A program made the position numbers and the translations under genes. From contig CAMOXZ010000001.1 of NCBI GenBank assembly GCA_946629545.1, positions 1 through 50,186 of the forward strand: a stretch of 50,186 bases of DNA, in the 5' to 3' direction. This document shows, in pieces, positions 1 to 28,933 of this stretch (position 1 is its first letter; each line of letters opens with the position of its first letter). This DNA is from an uncultured Bacillales bacterium (GTDB lineage: Bacteria > Bacillota_I > Bacilli_A > RF39 > UBA660). The notes under the pieces were generated by a model. It searched no databases and was not told where the DNA came from. It saw only the letters and a program-made list of their open reading frames with translations.

Positions 1-2222
1 ATTACAATTAAAGCAACTGATCAAACAATTAATTATGGTCAATCAATTGCAACTGGAACAGATAAAGTAACAGTTTCAAGTGGAACATTAGTAAGTGGAG
101 ATAGTATAACTGCAATTACATTAGCACAAAGCACAACTAACTACACTACAAATGGAACAATTACACCAAGTGCAGCTACAATCAAGAAATCAAGTACAGA
201 TGTAACAAGCAATTATTCAATTAATTATGCTACAGGTGTATTAAAGATTAATAAAGTAGCAGCAACAAATTCTGTAGCAATTTCTGGTACAAATACATAC
301 GGTAATACATTAACTGCAACTATCACAACAAATAGTGATGGAACTAAGAGTTATCAATGGTATTACAATAGTAGTAATAGTACAAGCGGTGGAACAGCAA
401 TCTCTGGAGCAACAGGAAATACTTATACAATTGGAACAGGTTTAGTAGGTAAATACATTTATGTTAAAGCTAGTGTAGCAGCAGGAACAAACTGGAATGC
501 TGCAACAGATGCTTACGATATAACTGACGCTACTGCAAACTCAACTGCGACAGTAGCAGCAAGAGCTATTACAATTAAAGCAACTGATCAAACAATTAAT
601 TATGGTCAATCAATTGCAACTGGAACAGATAAAGTAACAGTTTCAAGTGGAACATTAGTAAGTGGAGATAGTATAACTGCAATTACATTAGCACAAAGCA
701 CAACTAACTACACTACAAATGGAACAATTACACCAAGTGCAGCAACAATCAGTAAATCTGGAACAGCTATAACTGGTAACTATAATATTAGTTATGCTAC
801 AGGTGTATTAAAGATTAATAAAGTAAATGCAACATGTCCAACAGTATCTAACTATAGTGGACAATATGATGGTGGTACACATACTATTGGAGTAAGTGGA
901 AGTGCTAGTGGTGGAACATTAAAATTCAGTACTGATAATAGTACATGGAGTACAACAAATCCTGCTCTAGGACCAAACGCTGGAACAAATACAACAGTAT
1001 ATGTAAAAGTTGATGGTGATGGAAACCATAACACAGTTAACTGTTACGTAAGTGGAACAACAAGTCCAAAGGTAACAATTACACAAAAGACTGCTACAAA
1101 CTCAGTAGCAATCACAGGAACAAATACTTATGGAAATACATTAACTGCAACTATTACAACAAACAGTAATGGTACTAAGGGATATCAATGGTACTACAAT
1201 AGTAGTAATAGTACTTCAGGAGGAACAGCAATCTCAGGAGCAACAGGAAGTACATATACAATTGGAACAGGATTAGTAGGTAAGTATATCTATGTAGTAG
1301 CGAGTGTAGGAAGTAGTACAAACTACACTACACCAAGTAATTCAACAGATATAACTGACGCTACTGCAAACTCAACTGCGACAGTAGCAGCAAGAGCAAT
1401 TACAATTAAAGCAACTGATCAAACAATTAATTATGGTCAATCAATTGCAACTGGAACAGATAAAGTAACAGTTTCAAGTGGAACATTAGTAAGTGGAGAT
1501 AGTATAACTGCAATTACATTAGCACAAAGCACAACTAACTACACTACAAATGGAACAATTACACCAAGTGCAGCTACAATCAAGAAATCAAGTACAGATG
1601 TAACAAGCAATTATTCAATTAATTATGCTACAGGTGTATTAAAGATTAATAAAGTAGCAGCAACAAATTCTGTAGCAATTTCTGGTACAAATACATACGG
1701 TAATACATTAACTGCAACTATCACAACAAATAGTGATGGAACTAAGAGTTATCAATGGTATTACAATAGTAGTAATAGTACAAGCGGTGGAACAGCAATC
1801 TCTGGAGCAACAGGAAATACTTATACAATTGGAACAGGTTTAGTAGGTAAATACATTTATGTTAAAGCTAGTGTAGCAGCAGGAACAAACTGGAATGCTG
1901 CAACAGATGCTTACGATATAACTGACGCTACTGCAAACTCAACTGCGACAGTAGCAGCAAGAGCTATTACAATTAAAGCAACTGATCAAACAATTAATTA
2001 TGGTCAATCAATTGCAACTGGAACAGATAAAGTAACAGTTTCAAGTGGAACATTAGTAAGTGGAGATAGTATAACTGCAATTACATTAGCACAAAGCACA
2101 ACTAACTACACTACAAATGGAACAATTACACCAAGTGCAGCAACAATCAGTAAATCTGGAACAGCTATAACTGGTAACTATAATATTAGTTATGCTACAG
2201 GTGTATTAAAGATTAATAAAGT
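1..2222 (+). repeat. Long direct in-frame repeat: nt 1-824 are identical to nt 1399-2222 (period 1398 bp = 466 codons). Nested sub-repeats: 1-176 matches 568-743, and 259-567 is similar to 1096-1398
   Basis: A line-by-line comparison of the two copies found no mismatch until nt 825 versus 2223 (gta aat versus gtt gca). Confidence 0.85.
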
Positions 2223-5200
2223 TGCAGCAACATTAACATGTAGTAATAAAACTTATGATGGAACTGAACAAACAGCATGTAGCTGTAGTGGTGGTACAGT
2301 AGGTGGTACATATAAAGCTACATATTATAGTGCAACAGCATATACTGCATCATGTACACCAGATGGTAACCACTCAGCTCCAGAAAATAAGACATGGACA
2401 ATGAGTAAGAGGTCTATTACAATCACTGCAAAACCACAAACAGTTAATTATGGTACAGCAATTAGTAAGACAACAAGTGATGTAACAGTAGCTACTCTTG
2501 GAACTGGTGATACTTTAACTGCAATCACATTAACACAAAGTACAACAAATTACACAACAAATGGAACTATTACACCAAGTGCAGCAACAATTAAGAAATC
2601 AAGCACTGATGTAACAGGAAACTATACTATAAGTTATGCTACAGGTGTATTAAAGATTAATAAAGTTGCAGCAACATTAACATGTAGTAATAAAACTTAT
2701 GATGGAACTGAACAAACAGCATGTAGCTGTAGTGGTGGTACAGTAGGTGGTACATATAAAGCTACATATTATAGTGCAACAGCATATACTGCATCATGTA
2801 CACCAGATGGTAACCACTCAGCTCCAGAAAATAAGACATGGACAATGAGTAAGAGGTCTATTACAATCACTGCAAAACCACAAACAGTTAATTATGGTAC
2901 AGCAATTAGTAAGACAACAAGTGATGTAACAGTAGCTACTCTTGGAACTGGTGATACTTTAACTGCAATCACATTAACACAAAGTACAACAAATTACACA
3001 ACAAATGGAACTATTACACCAAGTGCAGCAACAATTAAGAAATCAAGCACTGATGTAACAGGAAACTATACTATAAGTTATGCTACAGGTGTATTAAAGA
3101 TTAATAAAGTAGCAGCAACATTAACATGTAGTAATAAAACTTATGATGGAACAGAACAAACAGCATGTAGCTGTAGTGGTGGTACAGTAGGTGGAACATA
3201 TAAAGCAACAAATTATAGTGCAACAGCATATACTGCTTCATGTACACCAGATGGAAACCATACTGCTCCAGATAATAAGACATGGACAATGAGTCAAAGA
3301 GCCATTACAGTAACAGCAGGAAGTACTAGTCGTGCATGGAATGGAAATGCATTAACTAATAGTTCTTGTACTATAACAAGTGGTTCATTAGGAACTGGTG
3401 ATAGTGCACCAACATGTGCGATGACTAGTGGAAGTACAATAACAGTAGCAAGTACAACAATAGGACAAAGTGCTAGTGTAAATAATACAATCAACACAGT
3501 AACAATCATGAAAGGAAGCACAAATGTAACAAGTAACTATAACATTACTAAAGCAAATGGAACATTAACAATTTCTTATGCAACTCCAACAGTTAATTTA
3601 ACTGCAAAAGAAACTGCATGGACAGGAAATGCAATTACTGCTAATAATGCAAGTGCAACTCCAAATTCAAGCCCAACATTTACATATACATACTACACAG
3701 ATAGTAGTTGTAGTACACAAACAACAACTTCTCATGGAGCAAGTGCAACTGGAGGAGCACCAAGTGTAGCAGGACAATACTATGTTAAGGCTAAAGCTAG
3801 TCCTGTAAGCACTAAGACTAATGAGGCTTATAGTGCATGTACTTCTCATAAGATTACAGTACCTACACCAACAGTAAGTTTAACTGCAAAAGAGACTGTA
3901 TATACAGGAAGTGCAATTTCTGCTAATACTGCAACAGTAAGCCCTAACTCAAATCCAACAATTACATATGTATACTACACAGATAGTGGATGTAGTACAC
4001 AAACAACTGCAGCAAATAGTGGTGCATCAGCTAATGGATCTGCACCAGTATATGCAGGACAATACTATGTAAAAGCAAATGCAGCAGCTGTAACAAATAA
4101 GACAGCAGCTGCAAGTAGTGCATGTACTTCTCATAAGATTACTCAAAAACCAATCACAGTAACAGCTGGAAGTACTAGTCGTGCATGGGATGGAAATGCT
4201 TTAACAAATAGCAACTGTACAGCTAGTGCTTTAGGAACAGGGGATTCTGTATCTTGTGCAATGACTAGCGGAAGTACAATAACAGTAGCAAGTACAACAA
4301 TTGGATCAAGTGCTAGTGTAAATAATACAATCAACACTGTAACAATCATGAAGGGTAGTGTTAATGTAACAAATAGTTATAGTATTACTAAAGCAACTGG
4401 TACATTAACAATCACTTATGCTGATCCAACAATTAGATTAACTGCAAAAGAGACAAATTATACAGGTAGTCCTATAGCAGCAAATACTGCAAGTGCAAGT
4501 CCTAATTCAAGTCCAAAATTTACATATTATTACTATACAAATAGTTCATGTACTGCTGGTGAAACTACAACAGCACCAACAAATGCAGGACAATATTATG
4601 TAAAAGCAAAAGCAGATCCTGTAAGTACAAAAACAAATGTTGCTTATAGTCAATGTACTTCTCATAAGATAAACAAGATTACATGTCCAGCACCAAGCGG
4701 TGTAACAATAAGTTCCGCTGGCTCAGTATCATGGACAGGAGTTAGTGCAGCAACTGGTTACCAAATAAGTATAGATAATAGTAATTGGACATCAGCAACT
4801 AGTCCAAAAGATTATAAGAGTACTATCACTGCTGCTACAGGAGCAAGAAATGTATATGTACGTAGTGTATGTAATACAACAAACTATTCAAGTTCAACAA
4901 GTGCTAGTGTATATGGATCTACAACAGTATATAGTGTAAGTTTAACTAAGGGTACTGGTATCAGTTCAGTAAGTGGAGCTGGAAACTATATTACTGGTTC
5001 AACAGCTTCAATTAGTGCAGAAGTATCTACTGGATATACATGGGCTAATTGGACAGGTTCATCTACAATATCAGATAGATCAACAAGTATTACAGTAAAT
5101 GGAAATAAATCATATACTGCTAATACAGTATCAAATATTTATACAATTACATTAGATCAACAAAGTGGTTCTGGTGGTACTACAGCAATATATGAAAAAT

Positions 5201-8200
5201 ATGCAACAGGATACTATTTAACAAATAGTGGTGGTACAGTATCTAATCAAATGAGTACAAGTGCTAATGGTGTAACTGTACCTACAAGAACTGGTTATGC
5301 ATTTGGTGGATATTATACTAATACAAATGGTGGAGGAACACAATTTATTGGTACTAATGGTAAATTGACTTCATCAGCAAGTACTACACAGTTTACTGCA
5401 AATGGAAATTTATATGCTAAATGGACAGCTAATACATATACATTAACAATCAATGCAAATGGTGGAACATATTCAGGTACTACACCAAGAACAATGACTT
5501 ATAATGAAACTACTAATAATGATATTGGTGTAGCTTCAAGAGGTGGATATACATTCCTTGGATGGTATGATACACAATACACTGGCGGAACGAAAGTATA
5601 TAATGCTAATGGACAAAAGAATACAGATGCAAGTGCTTATTGGACTTCTGATGGTAAGTGGAAGAAAACAAATAATGTAGAAGTATTTGCACGTTGGAAA
5701 CTTCCAACACCTTCTACTCCAACAATAAATGGTGGAGCTACAAAGGTATATGGATCTACAGCTGCAACACTTACATGTAATCAAAATGTAAGTTATACTG
5801 CAGGTACAAAGATGTATTCATTTGGATATTCAACATCAAGTGGTGTAACACCAACAAGTTGGTCAACTCCATCAACTTCAAATCAACATCTTGTTTATAC
5901 AGATTACTTTGGTTCTAGATATTATTACTGTAAAGTATACTTATCAGATGGAACTGCTGCATGGAATTCTGCGGAATCTACAAGTACATCAACAACAGTT
6001 ACAGTAAATAATGCTACTATCACTTTTAACGCTGGTACTGGTGGTACAGTATCTGGTGGTGTAGAAATTAATGGTACACATTATGCATATGTTAATAATG
6101 GAATGACTGGTTTATACAGTACGAAACAAGGTACTACTGCAATTTCAACACCATATTATCCAATTGCAAGTAAGAATGGTTATGGTTTTGATGGTTGGTA
6201 TACTGAAAACTATAGTGACTTAGTTATTACTACTGCTAAAAGTATCAGTGCTAATACTAGTGTAACGGCTGCAAATAGCTACTGGACAATAACATCTGAT
6301 ATAACACTATATGCAAAATATACACCAAATACTGTTACTGTTACATATAGTTGTGGTGATGATGCTTCACCAAAAACTTTCACTAATGGTTTCCCTGTTG
6401 ATACTGAGGTAACTTTACCAAGTACAGGATGTACAAAACCAGGTTATAAATTAAGTGGATGGGCTAGTACACCAGGTGGTTCAGCATTATCTCAAGGTCA
6501 AGTAATTATGGGCCCTGAACCTATGACATTATATGCACTTTATAGCCCTAATACATATACAATTACATTAGATAAACAAAGTGGTACTGGTGGTACTAGT
6601 ACAATTTATGAAAAATATGCTGATGGATATTACTTAACTAATAGTAATGGAACTCTATCAAATAAAATGAGTACTAGTGCTAATGGTATAACAGTACCAA
6701 CAAGAACATATTTCACATTTGGTGGATACTATACTGCAGCAAATGGTGGTGGTACACAATACATTGATGCTAATGGTAAAATAACAAGTAGTGCAAGTTC
6801 TACCAACTTCACATCTAATGGAACATTATATGCTAAGTGGACTCCTAATAGTTATAGTGTTACACTTGATAATAACTATTATCAAAATGATTTGTTTACG
6901 AAATCTAGTACTTTCCATTGGGATGTATCAGTTTCTTCTGCTGCTGATAAAGATGGTGTATATGCAGTTTATCACATGAAACCTAATAATTCTCAGGGTT
7001 CTAACTATGGTTGGACTAATGATTCAAGTGCTAAGGAAGGTAATTATAAGAGCATGGAATTAGCAAAAAATAGTAAGCCAGGATATTCACAAACAGTGAG
7101 TTTATCAGCAAACACAACTTATACTTGGTCTGTTAGATTAAAATCATCTAGTGCAAGAACAATTCAAATTGGTATTGAAAATGGTGGTTTGAAGAGCGTA
7201 GCTCTGACTACTGATTGGCAAACATTTAGTCATACCTTTACACTAACTACTGCAACTACTCAACCTATCTTCTATTTCGATAAGGCAGGTGCCACTAGTG
7301 CATATGATCTTGATATAAAAGATTTATATTTAGTTCAAGGAGATGGTAGTGGAAAGAGTTCAACTGTTTCGGTTCCTTATGGATCAACATTACAAACACC
7401 TACAAGAACTGGATATACATTCCAGGGTTGGTATACAGATCCTATCGGTGGAACTCAAGTAACAACATTTACTGCTACTAATAATCCAACATATTATGCA
7501 CATTGGACAATAAATACGTATAGATTTGAAATGCAAAATTATTTTAATAATACAATAGCAAATTATGAACTGGTTGGATGTGGTCAAGAAGCAATTTGGA
7601 GTCCCGTAATTACATTATGGGGAATCGAAGGATGGAATGATGATGATGGTCACTGGTATTGGAATCTTCCATATAATACTCCATACAAAGTAGAATTAGT
7701 GACTTCAATTGCATCTACAAAAGATTGTACTTTAAGCGGTCCTACTACATATGAAGGACAGATGGGTGCTTCAAACATTTTAATTAATTTATACTATTCG
7801 TTCACTTCGAAAACATATAGCTATACAGGTGGAACACAATCATTTACCGCTCCTGTAACCGGAACATATTCATTTGATGTATATGGAGCTGCAGGTGCAG
7901 GAACTAATAATCGTGGTAATGGTGGTATGGGTGGTCATTCATCTGGTACTAAGGTATTAAACGGTGGTGATACAATATATGTTGTAGTTGGTAAAAAAGG
8001 TGCTACAAATGGTTCTGTCGCCTATAATGGTGGAGGTAAAGGTAATGGCCATAGTGGTTATACTACTCACGCTGGAGATGGTGGTGGCCTTACACATATA
8101 GGAACTGTAAATAACCAATTAAAGAACTATACATCTGCTCAACGTAATAGCACATACGTTTACATCGTTGCCGGCGGCGGTGGCGGTGGTGCAGGATATG

Positions 8201-8583
8201 CAGGTAATAATGGTGGTACTGGAGGAGGCGAATCTGGTACTAAAGGTGGCGGCTCTTGGGGCGGCGGCGGCGGTACTCAATCCGCCGGTGGTGCTTGGAA
8301 CGGAAGTAGTTCTAATAGTAGTGGAAAAGGTGCATTTGGCCAAGGAGGTCATGCTGTATCAATGAGCTCGTGTGATCACGATCGTATATACGGTGGCGGC
8401 GGCGGCGGCGGCTGGTATGGCGGCGGCGCCGGTGACTATGCTTGTAAGGTAGCAAATCGTAATAAAACTGGTGCCGGTGGTGGTGGTTCCGGATATGTCG
8501 GAGGTGTCACTAACGGTGTCATGGAAAACGGTACGGGCCCTGATAGTAATGGTTCAGCCACAATCACATTGACATCTTACTAA
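1..8583 (+). CDS. Giant repetitive surface/secreted protein, 5'-truncated by the window edge (at least 2860 aa here). Modules: MBG (YGX-type) repeats, Ig-like YQWYY repeats, an FN3-like module (~4680-4920), multiple Listeria-Bacteroides (InlB B-type) repeats (~4920-6850 and 7345-7520), a CBM-like jelly roll (~6870-7340), and a C-terminal glycine-rich domain (~7810-8580)
   Basis: Frame 1 is open from nt 1 to the TAA at 8581-8583. My translation of the parts of 1-2400 I read (nt 1-~260 and 781-1080; the rest rests on nucleotide identity with repeat units I did translate) gives ITIKATDQTINYGQSIATGTDKVTVSSG...YATGVLKINK...YQWYYNSSNSTSGG with no stop and no Met. The track start at 2401 is therefore only the first in-frame ATG. 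Recognised motifs are ITI(K/T)A..QT.NYG...Y.I.YATGVLKINK (MBG) and GY.F.GWYT...GG...LYAKWT (Listeria-Bacteroides repeat). Confidence 0.9.
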   Translation: MTIKATDQTINYGQSIATGTDKVTVSSGTLVSGDSITAITLAQSTTNYTTNGTITPSAATIKKSSTDVTSNYSINYATGVLKINKVAATNSVAISGTNTYGNTLTATITTNSDGTKSYQWYYNSSNSTSGGTAISGATGNTYTIGTGLVGKYIYVKASVAAGTNWNAATDAYDITDATANSTATVAARAITIKATDQTINYGQSIATGTDKVTVSSGTLVSGDSITAITLAQSTTNYTTNGTITPSAATISKSGTAITGNYNISYATGVLKINKVNATCPTVSNYSGQYDGGTHTIGVSGSASGGTLKFSTDNSTWSTTNPALGPNAGTNTTVYVKVDGDGNHNTVNCYVSGTTSPKVTITQKTATNSVAITGTNTYGNTLTATITTNSNGTKGYQWYYNSSNSTSGGTAISGATGSTYTIGTGLVGKYIYVVASVGSSTNYTTPSNSTDITDATANSTATVAARAITIKATDQTINYGQSIATGTDKVTVSSGTLVSGDSITAITLAQSTTNYTTNGTITPSAATIKKSSTDVTSNYSINYATGVLKINKVAATNSVAISGTNTYGNTLTATITTNSDGTKSYQWYYNSSNSTSGGTAISGATGNTYTIGTGLVGKYIYVKASVAAGTNWNAATDAYDITDATANSTATVAARAITIKATDQTINYGQSIATGTDKVTVSSGTLVSGDSITAITLAQSTTNYTTNGTITPSAATISKSGTAITGNYNISYATGVLKINKVAATLTCSNKTYDGTEQTACSCSGGTVGGTYKATYYSATAYTASCTPDGNHSAPENKTWTMSKRSITITAKPQTVNYGTAISKTTSDVTVATLGTGDTLTAITLTQSTTNYTTNGTITPSAATIKKSSTDVTGNYTISYATGVLKINKVAATLTCSNKTYDGTEQTACSCSGGTVGGTYKATYYSATAYTASCTPDGNHSAPENKTWTMSKRSITITAKPQTVNYGTAISKTTSDVTVATLGTGDTLTAITLTQSTTNYTTNGTITPSAATIKKSSTDVTGNYTISYATGVLKINKVAATLTCSNKTYDGTEQTACSCSGGTVGGTYKATNYSATAYTASCTPDGNHTAPDNKTWTMSQRAITVTAGSTSRAWNGNALTNSSCTITSGSLGTGDSAPTCAMTSGSTITVASTTIGQSASVNNTINTVTIMKGSTNVTSNYNITKANGTLTISYATPTVNLTAKETAWTGNAITANNASATPNSSPTFTYTYYTDSSCSTQTTTSHGASATGGAPSVAGQYYVKAKASPVSTKTNEAYSACTSHKITVPTPTVSLTAKETVYTGSAISANTATVSPNSNPTITYVYYTDSGCSTQTTAANSGASANGSAPVYAGQYYVKANAAAVTNKTAAASSACTSHKITQKPITVTAGSTSRAWDGNALTNSNCTASALGTGDSVSCAMTSGSTITVASTTIGSSASVNNTINTVTIMKGSVNVTNSYSITKATGTLTITYADPTIRLTAKETNYTGSPIAANTASASPNSSPKFTYYYYTNSSCTAGETTTAPTNAGQYYVKAKADPVSTKTNVAYSQCTSHKINKITCPAPSGVTISSAGSVSWTGVSAATGYQISIDNSNWTSATSPKDYKSTITAATGARNVYVRSVCNTTNYSSSTSASVYGSTTVYSVSLTKGTGISSVSGAGNYITGSTASISAEVSTGYTWANWTGSSTISDRSTSITVNGNKSYTANTVSNIYTITLDQQSGSGGTTAIYEKYATGYYLTNSGGTVSNQMSTSANGVTVPTRTGYAFGGYYTNTNGGGTQFIGTNGKLTSSASTTQFTANGNLYAKWTANTYTLTINANGGTYSGTTPRTMTYNETTNNDIGVASRGGYTFLGWYDTQYTGGTKVYNANGQKNTDASAYWTSDGKWKKTNNVEVFARWKLPTPSTPTINGGATKVYGSTAATLTCNQNVSYTAGTKMYSFGYSTSSGVTPTSWSTPSTSNQHLVYTDYFGSRYYYCKVYLSDGTAAWNSAESTSTSTTVTVNNATITFNAGTGGTVSGGVEINGTHYAYVNNGMTGLYSTKQGTTAISTPYYPIASKNGYGFDGWYTENYSDLVITTAKSISANTSVTAANSYWTITSDITLYAKYTPNTVTVTYSCGDDASPKTFTNGFPVDTEVTLPSTGCTKPGYKLSGWASTPGGSALSQGQVIMGPEPMTLYALYSPNTYTITLDKQSGTGGTSTIYEKYADGYYLTNSNGTLSNKMSTSANGITVPTRTYFTFGGYYTAANGGGTQYIDANGKITSSASSTNFTSNGTLYAKWTPNSYSVTLDNNYYQNDLFTKSSTFHWDVSVSSAADKDGVYAVYHMKPNNSQGSNYGWTNDSSAKEGNYKSMELAKNSKPGYSQTVSLSANTTYTWSVRLKSSSARTIQIGIENGGLKSVALTTDWQTFSHTFTLTTATTQPIFYFDKAGATSAYDLDIKDLYLVQGDGSGKSSTVSVPYGSTLQTPTRTGYTFQGWYTDPIGGTQVTTFTATNNPTYYAHWTINTYRFEMQNYFNNTIANYELVGCGQEAIWSPVITLWGIEGWNDDDGHWYWNLPYNTPYKVELVTSIASTKDCTLSGPTTYEGQMGASNILINLYYSFTSKTYSYTGGTQSFTAPVTGTYSFDVYGAAGAGTNNRGNGGMGGHSSGTKVLNGGDTIYVVVGKKGATNGSVAYNGGGKGNGHSGYTTHAGDGGGLTHIGTVNNQLKNYTSAQRNSTYVYIVAGGGGGGAGYAGNNGGTGGGESGTKGGGSWGGGGGTQSAGGAWNGSSSNSSGKGAFGQGGHAVSMSSCDHDRIYGGGGGGGWYGGGAGDYACKVANRNKTGAGGGGSGYVGGVTNGVMENGTGPDSNGSATITLTSY
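2221..3290 (+). repeat. Tandem 444-bp (148-codon) repeat: copies 2221-2664 and 2665-3108 are identical. A diverged partial third copy spans 3109-~3290
   Basis: Direct comparison of the nucleotide lines. The protein unit VAATLTCSNKTYDGTEQTACSCSGG...KTWTMSKRSITITAKPQTVNYG...GVLKINK repeats exactly. Confidence 0.9.
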
Positions 8584-20539: not shown

Positions 20540-21799
20540 ATGAAAAAGAAAAGTAGAAAGAAAAAGAGTTTTATTAAAGATATTAAGAAAACTATTAATA
20601 GACAATTAAATGGTAAAGATTTAGCTTCTTTTACTATATTAGAAGTTATTTTAATTATATTTATATCTATATTATTTGGTGTAATAGTAGGTTATTTTAT
20701 TAATTATAGTAAAAATGATACTACAAAGGATTCTAATTTAAATGAGATAGTTTCTACATATAATAGTATAGTTAAGAATTATTATGGAGATTTAGATAAA
20801 AAAGAATTAAAAGATGCAGCAATAAAAGGAATGATTGAATCTTTAGATGATCCATATTCTAGTTATATGGATGGAGAAGTAGCAGATGATTTTAATGAAA
20901 CTATAGATGGTTCATTTAGTGGTATAGGTGTAGTAATTCAAACAGAAGAAGGTAATGATTATACTACTGTTATTGAGGTGTATGATGATTCACCTGCTAA
21001 AAAGGCTGGTATACTTGTTGATGATATGATTATTAAAGTTGATGGTGAAGATGTTAAAGGAAAAACAGGTAGTGAACTTGCAGCATTAGTTAGAGGTAAA
21101 AAAGGTACTATAGTAAATATTACTGTTAAGAGAAATGGTGAAGAAAAAGATTTAAATATTAAACGTGATGTTATTGATTTAATTAGTGTAACTGATAAGA
21201 TAATAGAATATGATGGTAAGAATATTGGTTATATTAGAATTGATTCTTTTGCAGCTAATACTTATTCACAATTTTATAAATCATTGAAAGCTCTTGAAAA
21301 TAAAAAGATTGATTCATTAATAATAGATGTTAGAAGTAATCCTGGAGGACATTTACAACAAACTAAACAAATACTAAGTTTATTCTTTGATAGTAAGACT
21401 GTTTTATATCAAATTAAATCTAAAGGTAAGACAGAGAAAGTATATTCATATTCAAATGAAAGTAGAAAATATCCAGTAGCAGTACTAATAGATAGTGCTA
21501 GTGCTAGTGCTTCTGAGATATTAGCTTCTTGCTTTAAAGAGAATTATAAGAAAGTATTTATTGTAGGTAATACTACTTATGGTAAAGGTACTGTTCAACA
21601 AACAGATACTTTAAGTAATGGTACTACTATTAAATATACTATTGAGACATGGTTAACTTCTAAAGGTAAGTTTATAAATGATGTAGGGGTAAGTCCTACT
21701 GTTGAAGTTAATTTAACTGAAGAGTACGTTAATAATCCTTGTGATGATACAGATGATCAGTTAAAAACAGCATTAGAAAAATTAAAAGAGTCTAAGTAG
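20540..21799 (+). CDS. S41 carboxyl-terminal processing protease (PDZ domain)
   Basis: DPYSSYM, a PDZ-like SPAKKAGILVDDMIIKVDG, DVRSNPGG and ASASASEILA motifs. Confidence 0.85.
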   Translation: MKKKSRKKKSFIKDIKKTINRQLNGKDLASFTILEVILIIFISILFGVIVGYFINYSKNDTTKDSNLNEIVSTYNSIVKNYYGDLDKKELKDAAIKGMIESLDDPYSSYMDGEVADDFNETIDGSFSGIGVVIQTEEGNDYTTVIEVYDDSPAKKAGILVDDMIIKVDGEDVKGKTGSELAALVRGKKGTIVNITVKRNGEEKDLNIKRDVIDLISVTDKIIEYDGKNIGYIRIDSFAANTYSQFYKSLKALENKKIDSLIIDVRSNPGGHLQQTKQILSLFFDSKTVLYQIKSKGKTEKVYSYSNESRKYPVAVLIDSASASASEILASCFKENYKKVFIVGNTTYGKGTVQQTDTLSNGTTIKYTIETWLTSKGKFINDVGVSPTVEVNLTEEYVNNPCDDTDDQLKTALEKLKESK

Positions 21800-21808
21800 A
21801 CTCTTTTT
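21784..21808. terminator. Bidirectional hairpin shared by the convergent S41 protease and sortase genes
   Basis: Stem aaaagagtct/agactctttt with loop aagt. It has A- and T-runs on either side and overlaps both stop codons. Confidence 0.6.
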
Positions 21809-22274
21809 CTATGCAATTTATTACGAGTTGGTATCCTTCTTTATTAGGACTACATGTGGTTAATATTAGTTGTTTTGTATTTTCTCTATTAAAACTAATA
21901 TAACCAGTCTTTTTTTCTTCCCATATATCTTTTACTTTATAGATATATTTTTTATTTTCTATTATAAGAATGATTTCATCATTTAATTCTAGTTTATCTA
22001 ATTCTTGGAAGTAGGCTAATGGTCCTATTCCTGAGTGAGCAGCAATTATCATTAAGTTAGTAGTTGATTCTTTTAGAATAGAAACATGTTTCTCTATAGT
22101 ATTTTCACTACTATTTATAGGAAATAATTCTTCTTTTAAATTTATTTTATTAATAATAAGCATACCATAATAATCTGTTTTTAATTGTTTAGTATTTTCA
22201 CTTATTTTAACTATAGATATTGGTGTGGTTATTACTACTATTATTAATAATATTGTATATAGTCTTTTTACCAT
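21792..22274 (-). CDS. Small sortase (160 aa), translationally coupled to the upstream adhesin gene
   Basis: N-terminal TM helix, IIAAHSG (catalytic His context) and LILTTCSP (TLxTC). The ATGGTAA overlap joins its start to the adhesin stop. Confidence 0.75.
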   Translation of the reverse strand: MVKRLYTILLIIVVITTPISIVKISENTKQLKTDYYGMLIINKINLKEELFPINSSENTIEKHVSILKESTTNLMIIAAHSGIGPLAYFQELDKLELNDEIILIIENKKYIYKVKDIWEEKKTGYISFNRENTKQLILTTCSPNKEGYQLVINCIEKEST

Positions 22275-23701
22275 AATATTAATAAGTATTTAATAATTAG
22301 TAATAATAGATAATTATTAGTACTAGTATTAGGTACTTCTATTATTATTTCTTTTTTTTCTACAGGTACTTCTATTTTTAGATCTTTTATTTCTATTAAT
22401 TCATTAGTAGTATTATCTACATTAATAGTAATATCATCTGCTTTATAATAGCCTTCTGTAGTATTAATTTGTTTTAGAGTATATGTACCATAAGGAAGAG
22501 TTATTTCAGCTATACCTTGGTTATTTGTGGTTATAGAGGATATTTCTTCATAGTTAGAATTAATAATTTGAAATTCTATGTTTTCTTCTCCTATGAAGTT
22601 ATCATTTTCACCATATTTCTTTTCTATAGTAATATTTTTATCTATTACTTTATTTTCTACTATTACTTGGTGTTTAGATTTTTCTTTAGTTATATTTACT
22701 TCATATGTATTAGTATCTAATAGATAGCCTGTTCCTGCTTCTTTTTCTTTTAGATAGTATTTTCCAAATGGTATATTATTGATAATGGCTTGATTATTCT
22801 CTATTACTAAGTCTTTTATTAGATTATTATTTTCATCATATAAAGAGTAAATAGCTCCATCTAGAGATGCTTCTCCTTTTGGTAATATAGATTTAGTATC
22901 TTTATCTAATTTAGTTAATTCTATTTCTGTTTTTATAACATTTACTTTGAATGATGTGGATACATTTGGGATATTACCTGTTTGTAGTAAATCTTGACTA
23001 GTACTAGATTCATAGAAGATATATGGTTTATTATGAATATTATCTTCTTTTTCTAATTTATATATGTGTTCTCCTTCAGTAGTTGGATTAATAATTAATT
23101 TATTATTTTCTATTCTTAGATTATCTCCTGTTACTTTTAGATTAGATATATCTTTTTCTAATACTAATTCATTACCACTAATAATAGTATATTCATTATC
23201 AAAACTAGGTAATTTATTATAATTATCAATTAAACTATTAATCTCATTCATTTCATCTTGGAATCTATCAATTTTATTACCATTTAAGTAATTAGTAAAA
23301 TAATAATATCCATATGCAGATTCTTTCCATATCATGAATTGAGTTATAGCATACCATTTAGGTTCTGTATGATTCTTATAACCATATCCAAAATAAGCTA
23401 TTTTAGTTATCCTATCTATTTGTGATTCAGATAGAATACTAGGTTTAGTAGTTGATTCATATGAGGCCATCTCATCAAATTGAGAAAATGGTTCTATACA
23501 ATATGCATATTCATTTGTACCCCTTTTTCTAAAAAATCTAGCTGTTTGGAAATAAGCTATATGAGTATCGTAGTTGTATTTATTTATATAGATATCATCT
23601 ATATACTCAGCCTCGTAAAAACTTGCACTTTCTGCTTTTACATTTATAAGTGATATAAATATAGAAGCTATTAATATTAAGAAAATATTTATTTTTTTAA
23701 T
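22268..23701 (-). CDS. Surface adhesin: signal peptide, thioester (TED/TQXA)-like domain, two SpaA/Cna-B-type domains, and an atypical C-terminal sorting signal. Proposed ATT start
   Basis: The frame stays open for 77 codons upstream of the track ATG (23470). It encodes IKKINIFLILIASIFISLINVKA|ESAS (signal peptide) and YAYCIEP. A GGAGG SD lies 7 nt before ATT 23701-23699, and there is no ATG/GTG/TTG between that codon and the in-frame TAA upstream. AITQFMIW is a TQxA(I/V)W-like motif. G.YYLKEKEAGTGY and YGTYTLKQINTTEGY are Cna-B/SpaA hallmarks. Confidence 0.65.
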   Translation of the reverse strand: MKKINIFLILIASIFISLINVKAESASFYEAEYIDDIYINKYNYDTHIAYFQTARFFRKRGTNEYAYCIEPFSQFDEMASYESTTKPSILSESQIDRITKIAYFGYGYKNHTEPKWYAITQFMIWKESAYGYYYFTNYLNGNKIDRFQDEMNEINSLIDNYNKLPSFDNEYTIISGNELVLEKDISNLKVTGDNLRIENNKLIINPTTEGEHIYKLEKEDNIHNKPYIFYESSTSQDLLQTGNIPNVSTSFKVNVIKTEIELTKLDKDTKSILPKGEASLDGAIYSLYDENNNLIKDLVIENNQAIINNIPFGKYYLKEKEAGTGYLLDTNTYEVNITKEKSKHQVIVENKVIDKNITIEKKYGENDNFIGEENIEFQIINSNYEEISSITTNNQGIAEITLPYGTYTLKQINTTEGYYKADDITINVDNTTNELIEIKDLKIEVPVEKKEIIIEVPNTSTNNYLLLLIIKYLLILW

Positions 23702-23920
23702 AAAAATCCCTCCTTCTTTTTCTTAATGAGCTAAATACTAACACTTGGATTTTTATTAAGCAAATGGGACTTTTTACTAATTAAATGAATAATATTAAGT
23801 AAAAATAATAATTCACTAAGAGAATTATTATTTTTTATGTATAATATGTATTTGAAAAAACAAGTTTTATAATATTAAAAAATATTATAATACATGGTAT
23901 AATCTATGTGAGGTGATTTT

Positions 23921-28051: not shown

Positions 28052-28127
28052 GTTGAATTAGATAAATTAATTGTTTGCTATGATTTTTATTTTCTTGTAT
28101 AGTGATACCTCAAAGGAGGTAAAATAT

Positions 28128-28933
28128 ATGGAAATAAAAGTAGAAAATCAAATTATAATTATATTAAATTTGATGGGGAAGATTATATTTCTATAACTGA
28201 TATGTTAAAAAATAAAGATGGATATTTCTTTATTACTGATTGGTTAAGAAATAGGAATACTCTTGAATTTTTAGGTATATGGGAAGAACTTAATAACCCT
28301 AGTTTTAATTATGGCGAATTCGCCATAATTAGAAGTCAATCAGGATTAAATAGTTTTAAAATAAGTGTAAAAGAGTGGGTAGAAAAAACTAATGCAGTTG
28401 GAATTATATCTAAGGCAGGTAGATATGGTGGTACCTATGCTCATAAAGATATTGCTTTTGAATTTGGAATGTGGATTAGTCCAAAATTCAAATTACTATT
28501 GATAAAAGAATTCGAAAGATTAAAAAAACAGGAACAGTCCAAAATAGAATGGAATGCTAAAAGAGAATTATCTAAGATTAACTATCATATTCATACAAGT
28601 GCTATTAAACATAATTTAATACCAAATAAATTGACTAAAGAACAAATAAACTATGTGTATGCAGAAGAAGCAGACGTATTAAATATGGCTTTATTCGGTG
28701 TTACTGCTAAACAATGGAGAGAAGAACATCCTAATATGGGTGGAAATATTAGAGATTATGCATCAATAAATGAATTAATATGTTTGGCAAATTTAGAAAA
28801 CTTAAATTCTGTCTTTATTAAGGATGGTATCAGTCAATCAATACGATTAGGGAGATTAAATAAAATTGCAATATTGCAAATGAATGTATTAAATATGAGT
28901 GATAAAAGTACAACAAAAAAAGAGATTACTTAG
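28128..28933 (+). pseudogene. KilA-N domain gene with an apparent 1-nt frameshift near codon 10
   Basis: A strong SD (AAAGGAGG) precedes ATG 28128, which gives MEIKVENQIIIILNLMGKIIFL and then a stop. The main ORF frame is open from 28139 and encodes ...NYNYIKFDGEDYISITDMLKNKDGYFFITDWLRNRNTLEFLGIWE..., the KilA-N family N-terminus. The track ATG at 28202 has no SD. Confidence 0.6.

Follow-up and report, generated by a model that had tools for sequence, protein, structure and literature searches.

The adhesin-sortase locus and its corrected start

The stretch of DNA analyzed here (the window) comprises positions 1 to 50,186 of contig CAMOXZ010000001.1 from an uncultured rumen/gut bacterium of the Bacillales (GenBank assembly GCA_946629545.1). 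Its minus strand carries a pair of adjoining genes, the first encoding a putative adhesin with a thioester domain (TED) and the second a small sortase. The adhesin gene is annotated as the open reading frame (ORF) 22268-23470, beginning with ATG. From the features collected in Table 1 and the comparisons described below, we consider it very probable that the gene instead occupies 22268-23701, that it is initiated at an AUU codon, and that it yields a functional, secreted, sortase-anchored adhesin of the Class II thioester-domain (TIE) type, heading a two-gene operon.

From the annotated ATG, the adhesin frame can be followed upstream through 84 open codons, as far as a TAA at 23725-23723, after which the codons read GAA AAA GAA GGA GGG ATT TTT ATT (23701-23699) AAA AAA ATA AAT. 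No ATG, GTG or TTG occurs in this frame between the upstream TAA and 23470. By our own estimate, stop codons make up ~9% of random triplets at the base composition of the window, which gives 84 open codons a chance probability of ~2e-4; the open leader is therefore more than chance. Among the other real genes of the window (~35), none has a leader of more than 24 codons except a frameshifted KilA-N gene. The ATT at 23701-23699 is the only start compatible with the sequence. Another in-frame ATT (23707-23705) was rejected as a start: it lies 1 nucleotide (nt) from the Shine-Dalgarno (SD) sequence, and the codon is TTT in the related locus L106. Since the other genes of the window start with ATG (31), GTG (2) or TTG (1), the ATT start is specific to this gene.

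Translation from the ATT gives IKKINIFLILIASIFISLINVKA/ESAS, YAYCIEP and AITQFMIW. The original prediction had described a frame open for 77 codons upstream of 23470, a GGAGG located 7 nt before the ATT and a lack of canonical starts between the in-frame TAA and the annotated ATG, and had warned that starting at this ATG would delete the export signal together with the thioester Cys. All of this agrees with the sequence, in which the open frame reaches its TAA at 84 codons and both elements are encoded upstream of the annotated start.

Table 1. Positions of the adhesin-sortase operon and of the elements of its start region, in window coordinates
Feature	Position	Strand	Remarks
Predicted promoter	23735..23763	-	-35 TTGCTT (23763-23758), 17-nt spacer, extended -10 TGTTAGTAT (23743-23735)
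Candidate helix, 5' arm	23718..23727	-	ATTAAGAAAA; at or next to the predicted mRNA 5' end; contains the in-frame TAA
Extended SD	23708..23716	-	GAAGGAGGG; 7 nt before ATT; invariant in the clade
GGAGG core of the SD	23713-23709	-	
ATT start codon	23699..23701	-	Expected to be decoded as formylmethionine (fMet); orthologues have ATA/ATC/ATT/ATG at the same position
Candidate helix, 3' arm	23676..23685	-	TTTTCTTAAT; codons 6-9 (I-F-L-I)
Adhesin gene, corrected	22268..23701	-	ATT-started, 477 amino acids (aa) + stop; from translation, Pfam TED + SpaA and AlphaFold2 model
Predicted domain order of the adhesin	22268..23701	-	Signal peptide, Class II thioester domain, two SpaA/CnaB-type domains, sorting signal
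Signal peptide	23633..23701	-	Residues 1-23, (M/I)KKINIFLILIASIFISLINVKA; predicted cleavage before ESAS
Residues 24-77	upstream of 23470	-	Between signal peptide and Met78; include ESASFYEAEYIDDIYINK, YNYDTHIAYFQTAR, GTNEYAYCIEPFSQFDE
TGT codon of Cys68	23498..23500	-	YCIE motif; predicted thioester Cys; 10 codons upstream of the annotated ATG
Annotated ATG	23468..23470	-	Met78, an internal codon
TQFMIW (T120-W125)	23327..23344	-	TQxx(hydrophobic)W motif; adjoins the thioester, not the bond partner
CAA codon of Gln236	22994..22996	-	TSQDLL; predicted thioester-forming Gln
Putative sorting motif VPNTSTN	22316..22336	-	Residues 456-462, then hydrophobic tail; V456, P457, T459 near-invariant
Small sortase gene	21792..22274	-	160 aa; ATG overlaps the adhesin stop (TTATGGTAA)
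Terminator-like hairpin	21784..21807	-	End of the two-gene operon

The encoded protein

The N-terminus encoded from the ATT combines a KK n-region, a 15-residue hydrophobic core and V-K-A, and forms a helix over residues 2-18 in the AlphaFold2 model. This predicted signal peptide is conserved in the orthologues and is present in the window protein only if translation begins at the ATT, in line with the textbook export signal originally proposed for the extension. Between it and Met78, ESASFYEAEYIDDIYINK...CIEPFSQFDE spans the region upstream of the annotated start. The Pfam TED model (PF08341) matches residues 65-143 of the ATT-started protein with 37 bits (gathering cut-off 22), so that the domain begins 13 residues upstream of the annotated Met, and Pfam also recognizes two SpaA-type domains. 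The search with TED and TQXA models suggested in the original prediction was therefore positive for Pfam, and no TED/TQXA-type model of NCBIfam matched the adhesin at E <= 1. A profile of the orthologues compared with PDB sequences found SaTIE-TED (6fx6) at E 2.5e-11 and also matched BaTIE (6fwv). BaTIE 6fwv is the best PDB fold match (E 1.7e-25) of the AlphaFold2 model, whose predicted local distance difference test (pLDDT) score is 88, and the template modeling (TM) score of this model against SaTIE-TED 6fx6 is 0.69.

In proteins of this type, the thioester bond joins the Cys of a [YFL]C(hydrophobic)(hydrophilic) motif to a distant Gln (Cys296 and Gln467 in SaTIE), and the Gln of the TQxx(hydrophobic)W motif merely adjoins the bond; the hallmark of Class II is a seven-strand beta-sandwich of ~75 residues between the helical bundle and strand Q (Miller et al. 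2018, PMC6194298). In the window protein, Y67-C68-I69-E70 fits the first motif; its Cys68 occurs without exception in 64 sequences and corresponds to SaTIE Cys296 in the alignment. The second motif aligns with ATQMLIW of SaTIE, its Q121, I124 and W125 being invariant in the same number of sequences. Gln236, likewise invariant in 64 sequences, aligns with 6fx6 chain residue 218, which is SaTIE Gln467; it is placed by the AlphaFold2 model on a predicted beta-strand (236-240) that follows seven predicted strands within residues 170-231, matching the Class II beta-sandwich insert. By sequence and model, the adhesin is a Class II TIE protein with a predicted thioester. Of the pair formed by YAYCIEP and AITQFMIW, which the original prediction had read as the signature of a TED, the domain and both motifs stand, and Gln121 as the bond partner does not. 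Because the predicted partner is Gln236, the accompanying caveat that the Cys-to-Gln spacing was too short falls away: the partner had been misassigned, and the predicted spacing of 168 residues compares with 171 in SaTIE.

The adhesin shares with the Class II TIE proteins BaTIE (6FWV) and SaTIE-TED (6FX6) the YC(hydrophobic)(hydrophilic) and TQxx(hydrophobic)W motifs, a Gln ~170 residues past the Cys, the seven-strand insert, a stalk of CnaB/SpaA domains and, probably, sortase anchoring. It differs from them in a sequence identity of only ~17-18%, in a shorter stalk (two SpaA-type domains), in a sorting motif (VPNTSTN) that is not LPXTG-like, and in having a dedicated 160-aa sortase gene that overlaps its own. 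The C-terminal tail of the adhesin lacks a terminal basic cluster and weakly resembles the LPxTATN signal of NCBIfam (E 0.21). In relatives, the motif takes the form VP[ND]T[SH]T. The sortase scores under every NCBIfam class cut-off, its closest models being class C/D and the LPxTATN-specific SrtD. By the SD criteria applied to the window genes, the sortase gene has no SD of its own, and its translation is probably coupled to that of the adhesin, as judged from the overlap. In all orthologous loci, the adhesin-sortase pair lies between the genes for formate-tetrahydrofolate ligase (FTHFS) and a CtpB-like protease.

The start codon across relatives

The ATT of the window recurs in two further assemblies of the same species, L022 (99.9% identity; 4 mismatches in 4463 nt) and L122 (99.7% identity; 9 mismatches in 3113 nt); as three independent assemblies carry it, it is not a sequence error. 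In the loci L102-L107, whose adhesins are 73-77% identical to that of the window, cattaaGAAAAAGAAGGAGGG(A/T)TTTTT is followed by ATG and then by AAA AAA ATA AAT. Their ATG thus sits behind the same GGAGGG(A/T)TTTTT spacer as the ATT of the window, and as it is the homologous codon, it pins the start to this ATT. The start codon is ATT in the window, L022, L122 and L031; ATA in L001, L023-L026, L028, L041, L044, L108-L112, L117-L121 and L123-L124; ATC in L027 and L030; and ATG in L102-L107, L113-L116 and more distant orthologues (39-49% identity). The comparison of orthologue start codons, which had been put forward as a check, therefore places ATG, ATT, ATA or ATC at the homologous codon and not at the internal Met.

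Altogether, non-AUG starts of the AUH type (AUU, AUA or AUC) were found in at least 14 distinct lineages, in a clade that reaches down to ~48% protein identity. In the alignment of start regions, the SD, leader and spacer (the surrounding 35 nt) are almost invariant and the third base of the start codon varies. On a neighbour-joining tree with ATG outgroups, Fitch parsimony requires 5-6 changes between ATG and non-ATG. Such a change is seen at the strain level: over 2871 nt, L107 (ATG) and L001 (ATA) show a single 18-nt indel and only 4 substitutions, one of which falls on the start codon's third position. The indel itself (L001 7046 versus L107 2372-2389) is in frame, comprises six codons and lies between the two SpaA-type domains.

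We also recorded the residue at the start position in the 120 best homologue clusters. It is Met in 5 of them and Ile in 43-44, in the latter since their calls begin at an in-frame start further upstream and run through this position. The calls of the other 72 clusters are truncated, beginning within the signal peptide or beyond it; wherever the DNA was checked, the codon is ATA or ATT and a TAA lies seven codons before it. From these sequence comparisons, the adhesin gene is very probably a genuine AUH-initiated gene, and it is systematically misannotated.

Selection on the encoded protein points in the same direction. The ratio of non-synonymous to synonymous substitution rates (dN/dS; Nei-Gojobori, nine AUH lineages, dS 0.1-2.2, with three distant pairs saturated) was 0.06-0.30 for codons 2-77 and 0.17-0.50 for the remainder of the gene; by this measure, codons 2-77 are under purifying selection, which points to a translated leader. 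Residue 78 is Met in P0006 and the window, and Ile, Thr, Glu or Asn in the other orthologues, where it stands in contexts such as FDEIA (P0002), FNETS (P0003), FNEES (P0004) and FNENA (P0007). Given the dN/dS values, the invariant Cys68 and the conserved signal peptide, neither a pseudogene nor a start at Met78 fits.

A predicted promoter and a probable helix around the ribosome-binding site

Upstream of the SD, the orthologues share a conserved TGnTAnnAT box 17 nt after TTG(C/T)(A/T), which resembles an extended -10 promoter; the TG and the TA..AT columns of the -10 element are invariant in the start-region alignment. Just downstream, the leader sequence ATTAAGAAAA is the exact reverse complement of TTTTCTTAAT, so that 10 base pairs (bp) could form around a 32-nt loop holding both the SD and the start codon. 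Each of the 25 distinct start-region sequences from orthologues with this leader has the pairing and keeps a minority TTC Phe codon. The pairing is extended by lineage-specific pairs, namely CC..GG in L002/L033, AAC..GTT in L030 and C..G in L038/L117, and the arms in L042 are GTTAAGAA/TTCTTAAC. In L034/36/37 (TAGTGCAAA/TTTGCACTA) and in L006 (TAGAATCAT/ATGATTCTA), arms of unrelated sequence are found at this position, and L004/5/7 have a 10-11-bp helix (AATAATACTAT/ATAGTATTATT) further out, at about -40/+25.

Pair counts on a MAFFT alignment of the 25 start regions did not exceed those of shuffles; in it, 20 rows have invariant core arms and the divergent rows are shifted by one column. We therefore used an alignment-free search for the longest helix with two nulls: other positions or genes, and dinucleotide shuffles. 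The longest helix averaged 5.5 bp (maximum 9) at the other genes of the window, and 0.5% of random positions reached 10 bp. Against dinucleotide shuffles, the P value was 0.0145 for the window, <0.0005 for L002, 0.0005 for L030, 0.0045 for L034, 0.045 for L006 and 0.005 for L005. The helix is also the minimum free energy (MFE) fold in L002, L030, L034, L036, L006 and L117. Distant TED paralogues (L045-L073) mostly lack it, so it belongs to the syntenic orthologue group and a few others. On balance, the sequences favor a 10-bp helix between the mRNA 5' end and codons 6-9, which we regard as probable, with appreciable room for doubt.

Two known kinds of element were considered for the start region. 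The arrangement is not that of an SD-masking RNA thermometer such as fourU or ROSE, as the SD and the start codon lie in the loop and not in the stem, and positions 23400-23920 gave no Rfam match at E <= 1. Termination-reinitiation at an upstream open reading frame (uORF), with TAT TAA overlapping the ATT, was rejected because the overlap is gone in the ATA lineages.

Alternative explanations

The alternative with most in its favor accepts the AUH start but gives it no regulatory meaning: the start would have drifted under weak selection and A/T mutation pressure, and the helix would be a by-product of composition, that is, of an A-rich leader facing T-rich signal-peptide codons. Several observations weigh on this side and against our interpretation. 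The base composition at four-fold degenerate sites of the window is 56% T, 39% A, 3% G and 1.6% C, and the third bases of the start codons (mostly A/T, few C/G) resemble this neutral composition, with G in ~4-10% of lineages compared with the 3% at four-fold sites. This ATG fraction is near the neutral expectation and fits a tolerated weak start as well as a selected one, and relaxed selection combined with A/T mutation pressure would likewise produce the start-codon pattern. Regarding the helix, covariation tests on the MAFFT alignment of the 25 start regions were negative: RNAalifold returned no consensus structure, and pair counts were not above those of shuffles. In the window, the helix is thermodynamically marginal (-4.1 kcal/mol for the helix alone versus -5.8 for the alternative MFE fold, z -0.49, RNAfold), and L010/L011, L008 and L009 do not have it. 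A generic promoter scan did not list TTGCTT-17-TGnTAGTAT, which matches 7/12 consensus positions and falls below the threshold, so the promoter is predicted from cross-species conservation only, and the transcription start site, predicted near 23727-23729, is in turn placed from this predicted promoter.

Against drift, the surrounding 35 nt are almost invariant and the third base alone varies, and one of only four substitutions between near-identical strains hits precisely this base. Moreover, unrelated arms keep their complementarity at the same place in L034/36/37 and L006, with the helix of L004/5/7 at -40/+25, composition-matched shuffles gave P values of 0.0005-0.045, and the TTC codon is kept in 25/25 distinct start regions. 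Taking both sides together, we regard an AUH start without regulatory meaning as possible but rather unlikely.

A second alternative is that the start codon has been lost, the ATT being a dead ATG and the gene a silenced adhesin or pseudogene. A single G-to-T change converts ATG to ATT, four-fold sites are 95% A/T, and close orthologues do carry ATG. However, a non-AUG codon is found in ~95% of the 120 homologue clusters, down to ~50% identity, and the clusters keep intact ORFs, signal peptides and invariant Cys68/Gln236; together with the near-invariance of the SD and spacer and the dN/dS of codons 2-77 in the AUH lineages, this makes silencing highly improbable. Of the two options left by the original prediction, a genuine ATT-initiated gene or a silencing mutation, the former is thus favored by the orthologous ATG, the AUH clade and the purifying selection.

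A third possibility is initiation at an upstream ATG or GTG, producing a protein that begins with 'MLVSxxLRKKGGIFIKK...', with genomes like that of the window reaching the frame by frameshifting or by slippage in A/T runs (phase variation). Between 39 and 44 database proteins are called in this way, and the lengths of the upstream A-run and T-run do vary between lineages. Nevertheless, the upstream ATG/GTG has no SD of its own and, where present in frame, falls in the conserved TGnTAnnAT -10 box, and 'LRKKGG' is simply what the leader and SD give when translated. In the window, the upstream ATG/GTG and the ORF are in different frames, and a TAA stands between the two in at least nine distinct lineages; the window, L001, L022-L024, L026, L027, L031, L044, L108-L112 and L122-L124 have the TAA and no upstream in-frame start. 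Because a TAA or a frame change intervenes in many lineages, the window included, an upstream start cannot explain the family as a whole. Run lengths differ between species and not within them, as L109-L112, L117-L121 and L102-L105 are each uniform, and there is no conserved upstream ORF. Nor does the locus behave as a phase-variable simple-sequence repeat: the A-run after the start codon is in frame in all loci, and the only within-species change seen is the base substitution in the start codon (L107 versus L001). We give an upstream start hardly any credence. The conserved-looking RKKGG N-terminal peptide is a recurrent gene-calling artefact; P0008, P0021, P0064, P0097, P0117 and ~40 other entries have N-termini of the form 'M[LI][VIL]Sxx[LP]RKKGGI[FY]IKK'.

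Finally, translation from the annotated ATG at 23470, the first canonical start and the one chosen by gene callers (P0001), would give a cytoplasmic 400-aa protein, which is just as improbable given that this ATG has no SD by the criteria used, that Met78 is not conserved in the orthologues, that the Pfam TED match begins 13 residues upstream, and that the product would lose the signal peptide and the invariant thioester Cys yet retain a sorting signal for sortase.

Proposed mechanism and known precedents

In the AUH-initiated gene that we favor, fMet-tRNA would pair with the first two bases of the start codon, and the extended SD GAAGGAGGG, the 7-nt U-rich spacer and the AAA AAA of codons 2-3 would hold the 30S ribosomal subunit in register. 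Initiation factor 3 (IF3) rejects starts with a third-base mismatch (PMC9723500; PMC5499595). Initiation on AUH would be several-fold weaker than on AUG and sensitive to IF3 proofreading, keeping the adhesin at a low level, and the output of the sortase would also be low, since its ATG overlaps the stop codon of the adhesin gene and lacks a separate SD. The remark in the original prediction that ATT starts are rare and usually go with low or regulated translation would be a reasonable expectation for this gene. At the start codon, the third base would drift between U, A and C and sometimes flip to G, even between near-identical strains, with a heritable change of expression as the result.

AUH-initiated genes are already known, and the adhesin is an unusually well-sampled further case. 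In the AUU/AUA starts of E. coli infC and pcnB and of S. aureus infC (AUA), a conserved AUH stands behind a good SD, as it does here, and by analogy fMet-tRNA is expected to decode the AUH of the adhesin despite mismatching its third base, with IF3 as a restraint. Unlike infC, the adhesin gene encodes a secreted product and not a translation factor, so that no autoregulatory loop is evident, and the third base of its start drifts between U, A and C, with flips to G inside a single species. Closer in phylogeny, S. aureus ccpN (AUA), cvfC1 (AUU) and citZ (AUA), identified by Ribo-RET, are Bacillota genes whose AUH starts are conserved across species and preceded by an extended SD, like that of the adhesin. 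In S. aureus, an extended SD accompanies every conserved AUU/AUA start, and reporter output is ~10-30% of that from AUG (preprint 10.1101/2025.06.19.660503). In contrast to these genes, the evidence for the adhesin is comparative only, drawn from >100 homologue clusters of uncultured rumen and gut Bacilli, and the gene heads an adhesin-sortase operon and has a probable helix around its ribosome-binding site.

By analogy with Bacillus leaders, this helix may shield the 5' end of the mRNA, hold back 30S accommodation or do both. In Bacilli, occlusion of the 5' end or a strong SD stabilizes mRNAs even without efficient translation (PMC3997798; PMC5737220). The Bacillus 5' stabilizers (the aprE leader stem-loop, the cryIIIA STAB-SD and hbs) combine 5'-end occlusion and/or a strong SD near the 5' end. 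The helix of the adhesin differs from them in that its 3' arm lies inside the coding region (codons 6-9) and its loop contains the entire ribosome-binding site. A more ambitious idea, which we put forward tentatively and hold to be doubtful, is that the whole start region is a dedicated post-transcriptional module made up of the 5' helix, the extended SD, the A-rich codons 2-3 and the AUH start, with the third-base flips serving as a rheostat.

Other features of the window

A second AUH candidate, at 28124, was rejected: it belongs to the KilA-N gene and stems from a frameshift. In this gene (28110-28933, plus strand), the domain extends upstream of the called ATG at 28202, and the real, SD-preceded ATG at 28129 is in a different frame, implying a frameshift around 28150-28165 that could reflect a pseudogene, a sequencing error in an A/T run or a programmed shift. 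At the edge of the window, positions 1-8583 of the plus strand belong to a very large ORF for a surface protein, which is already open at position 1 and exceeds 2860 codons. Its nearly identical repeats, which measure several hundred residues (MBG_2-like, Listeria-Bacteroides repeat, Gly-rich C-terminal domain), are a likely source of assembly collapse. Over all called genes of the window, the stop codons are TAA (23), TAG (11) and TGA (1). GC skew is strongly positive on the plus strand along most of the window, and most genes lie on this strand.

Significance

The true start of this adhesin family is used by only 5/120 (~4%) of its closest database entries, whereas the others either begin within or beyond the signal peptide or run on upstream across the promoter and SD ('MLVS..RKKGG'). 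In the window, the annotated call also removes the thioester Cys. Because of these wrong starts, surveys of secreted proteins, adhesins and TED domains in rumen and gut Bacilli would miss or misclassify the family. At the same time, >100 lineages with AUU, AUA or AUC behind an invariant extended SD make up a large natural set of non-AUG starts outside infC, in which selection for weak starts could be tested directly against mere tolerance of them, and the probable helix offers a concrete, mutable element for studying how the levels of an adhesin and its sortase are set in Bacillota. If the doubtful module proposed above were real, it would keep a stable mRNA at a low translation rate sensitive to IF3 or to conditions, and third-base flips between AUH and AUG would give gut populations a heritable means of tuning the expression of a covalent adhesin, in the manner of a rheostat.

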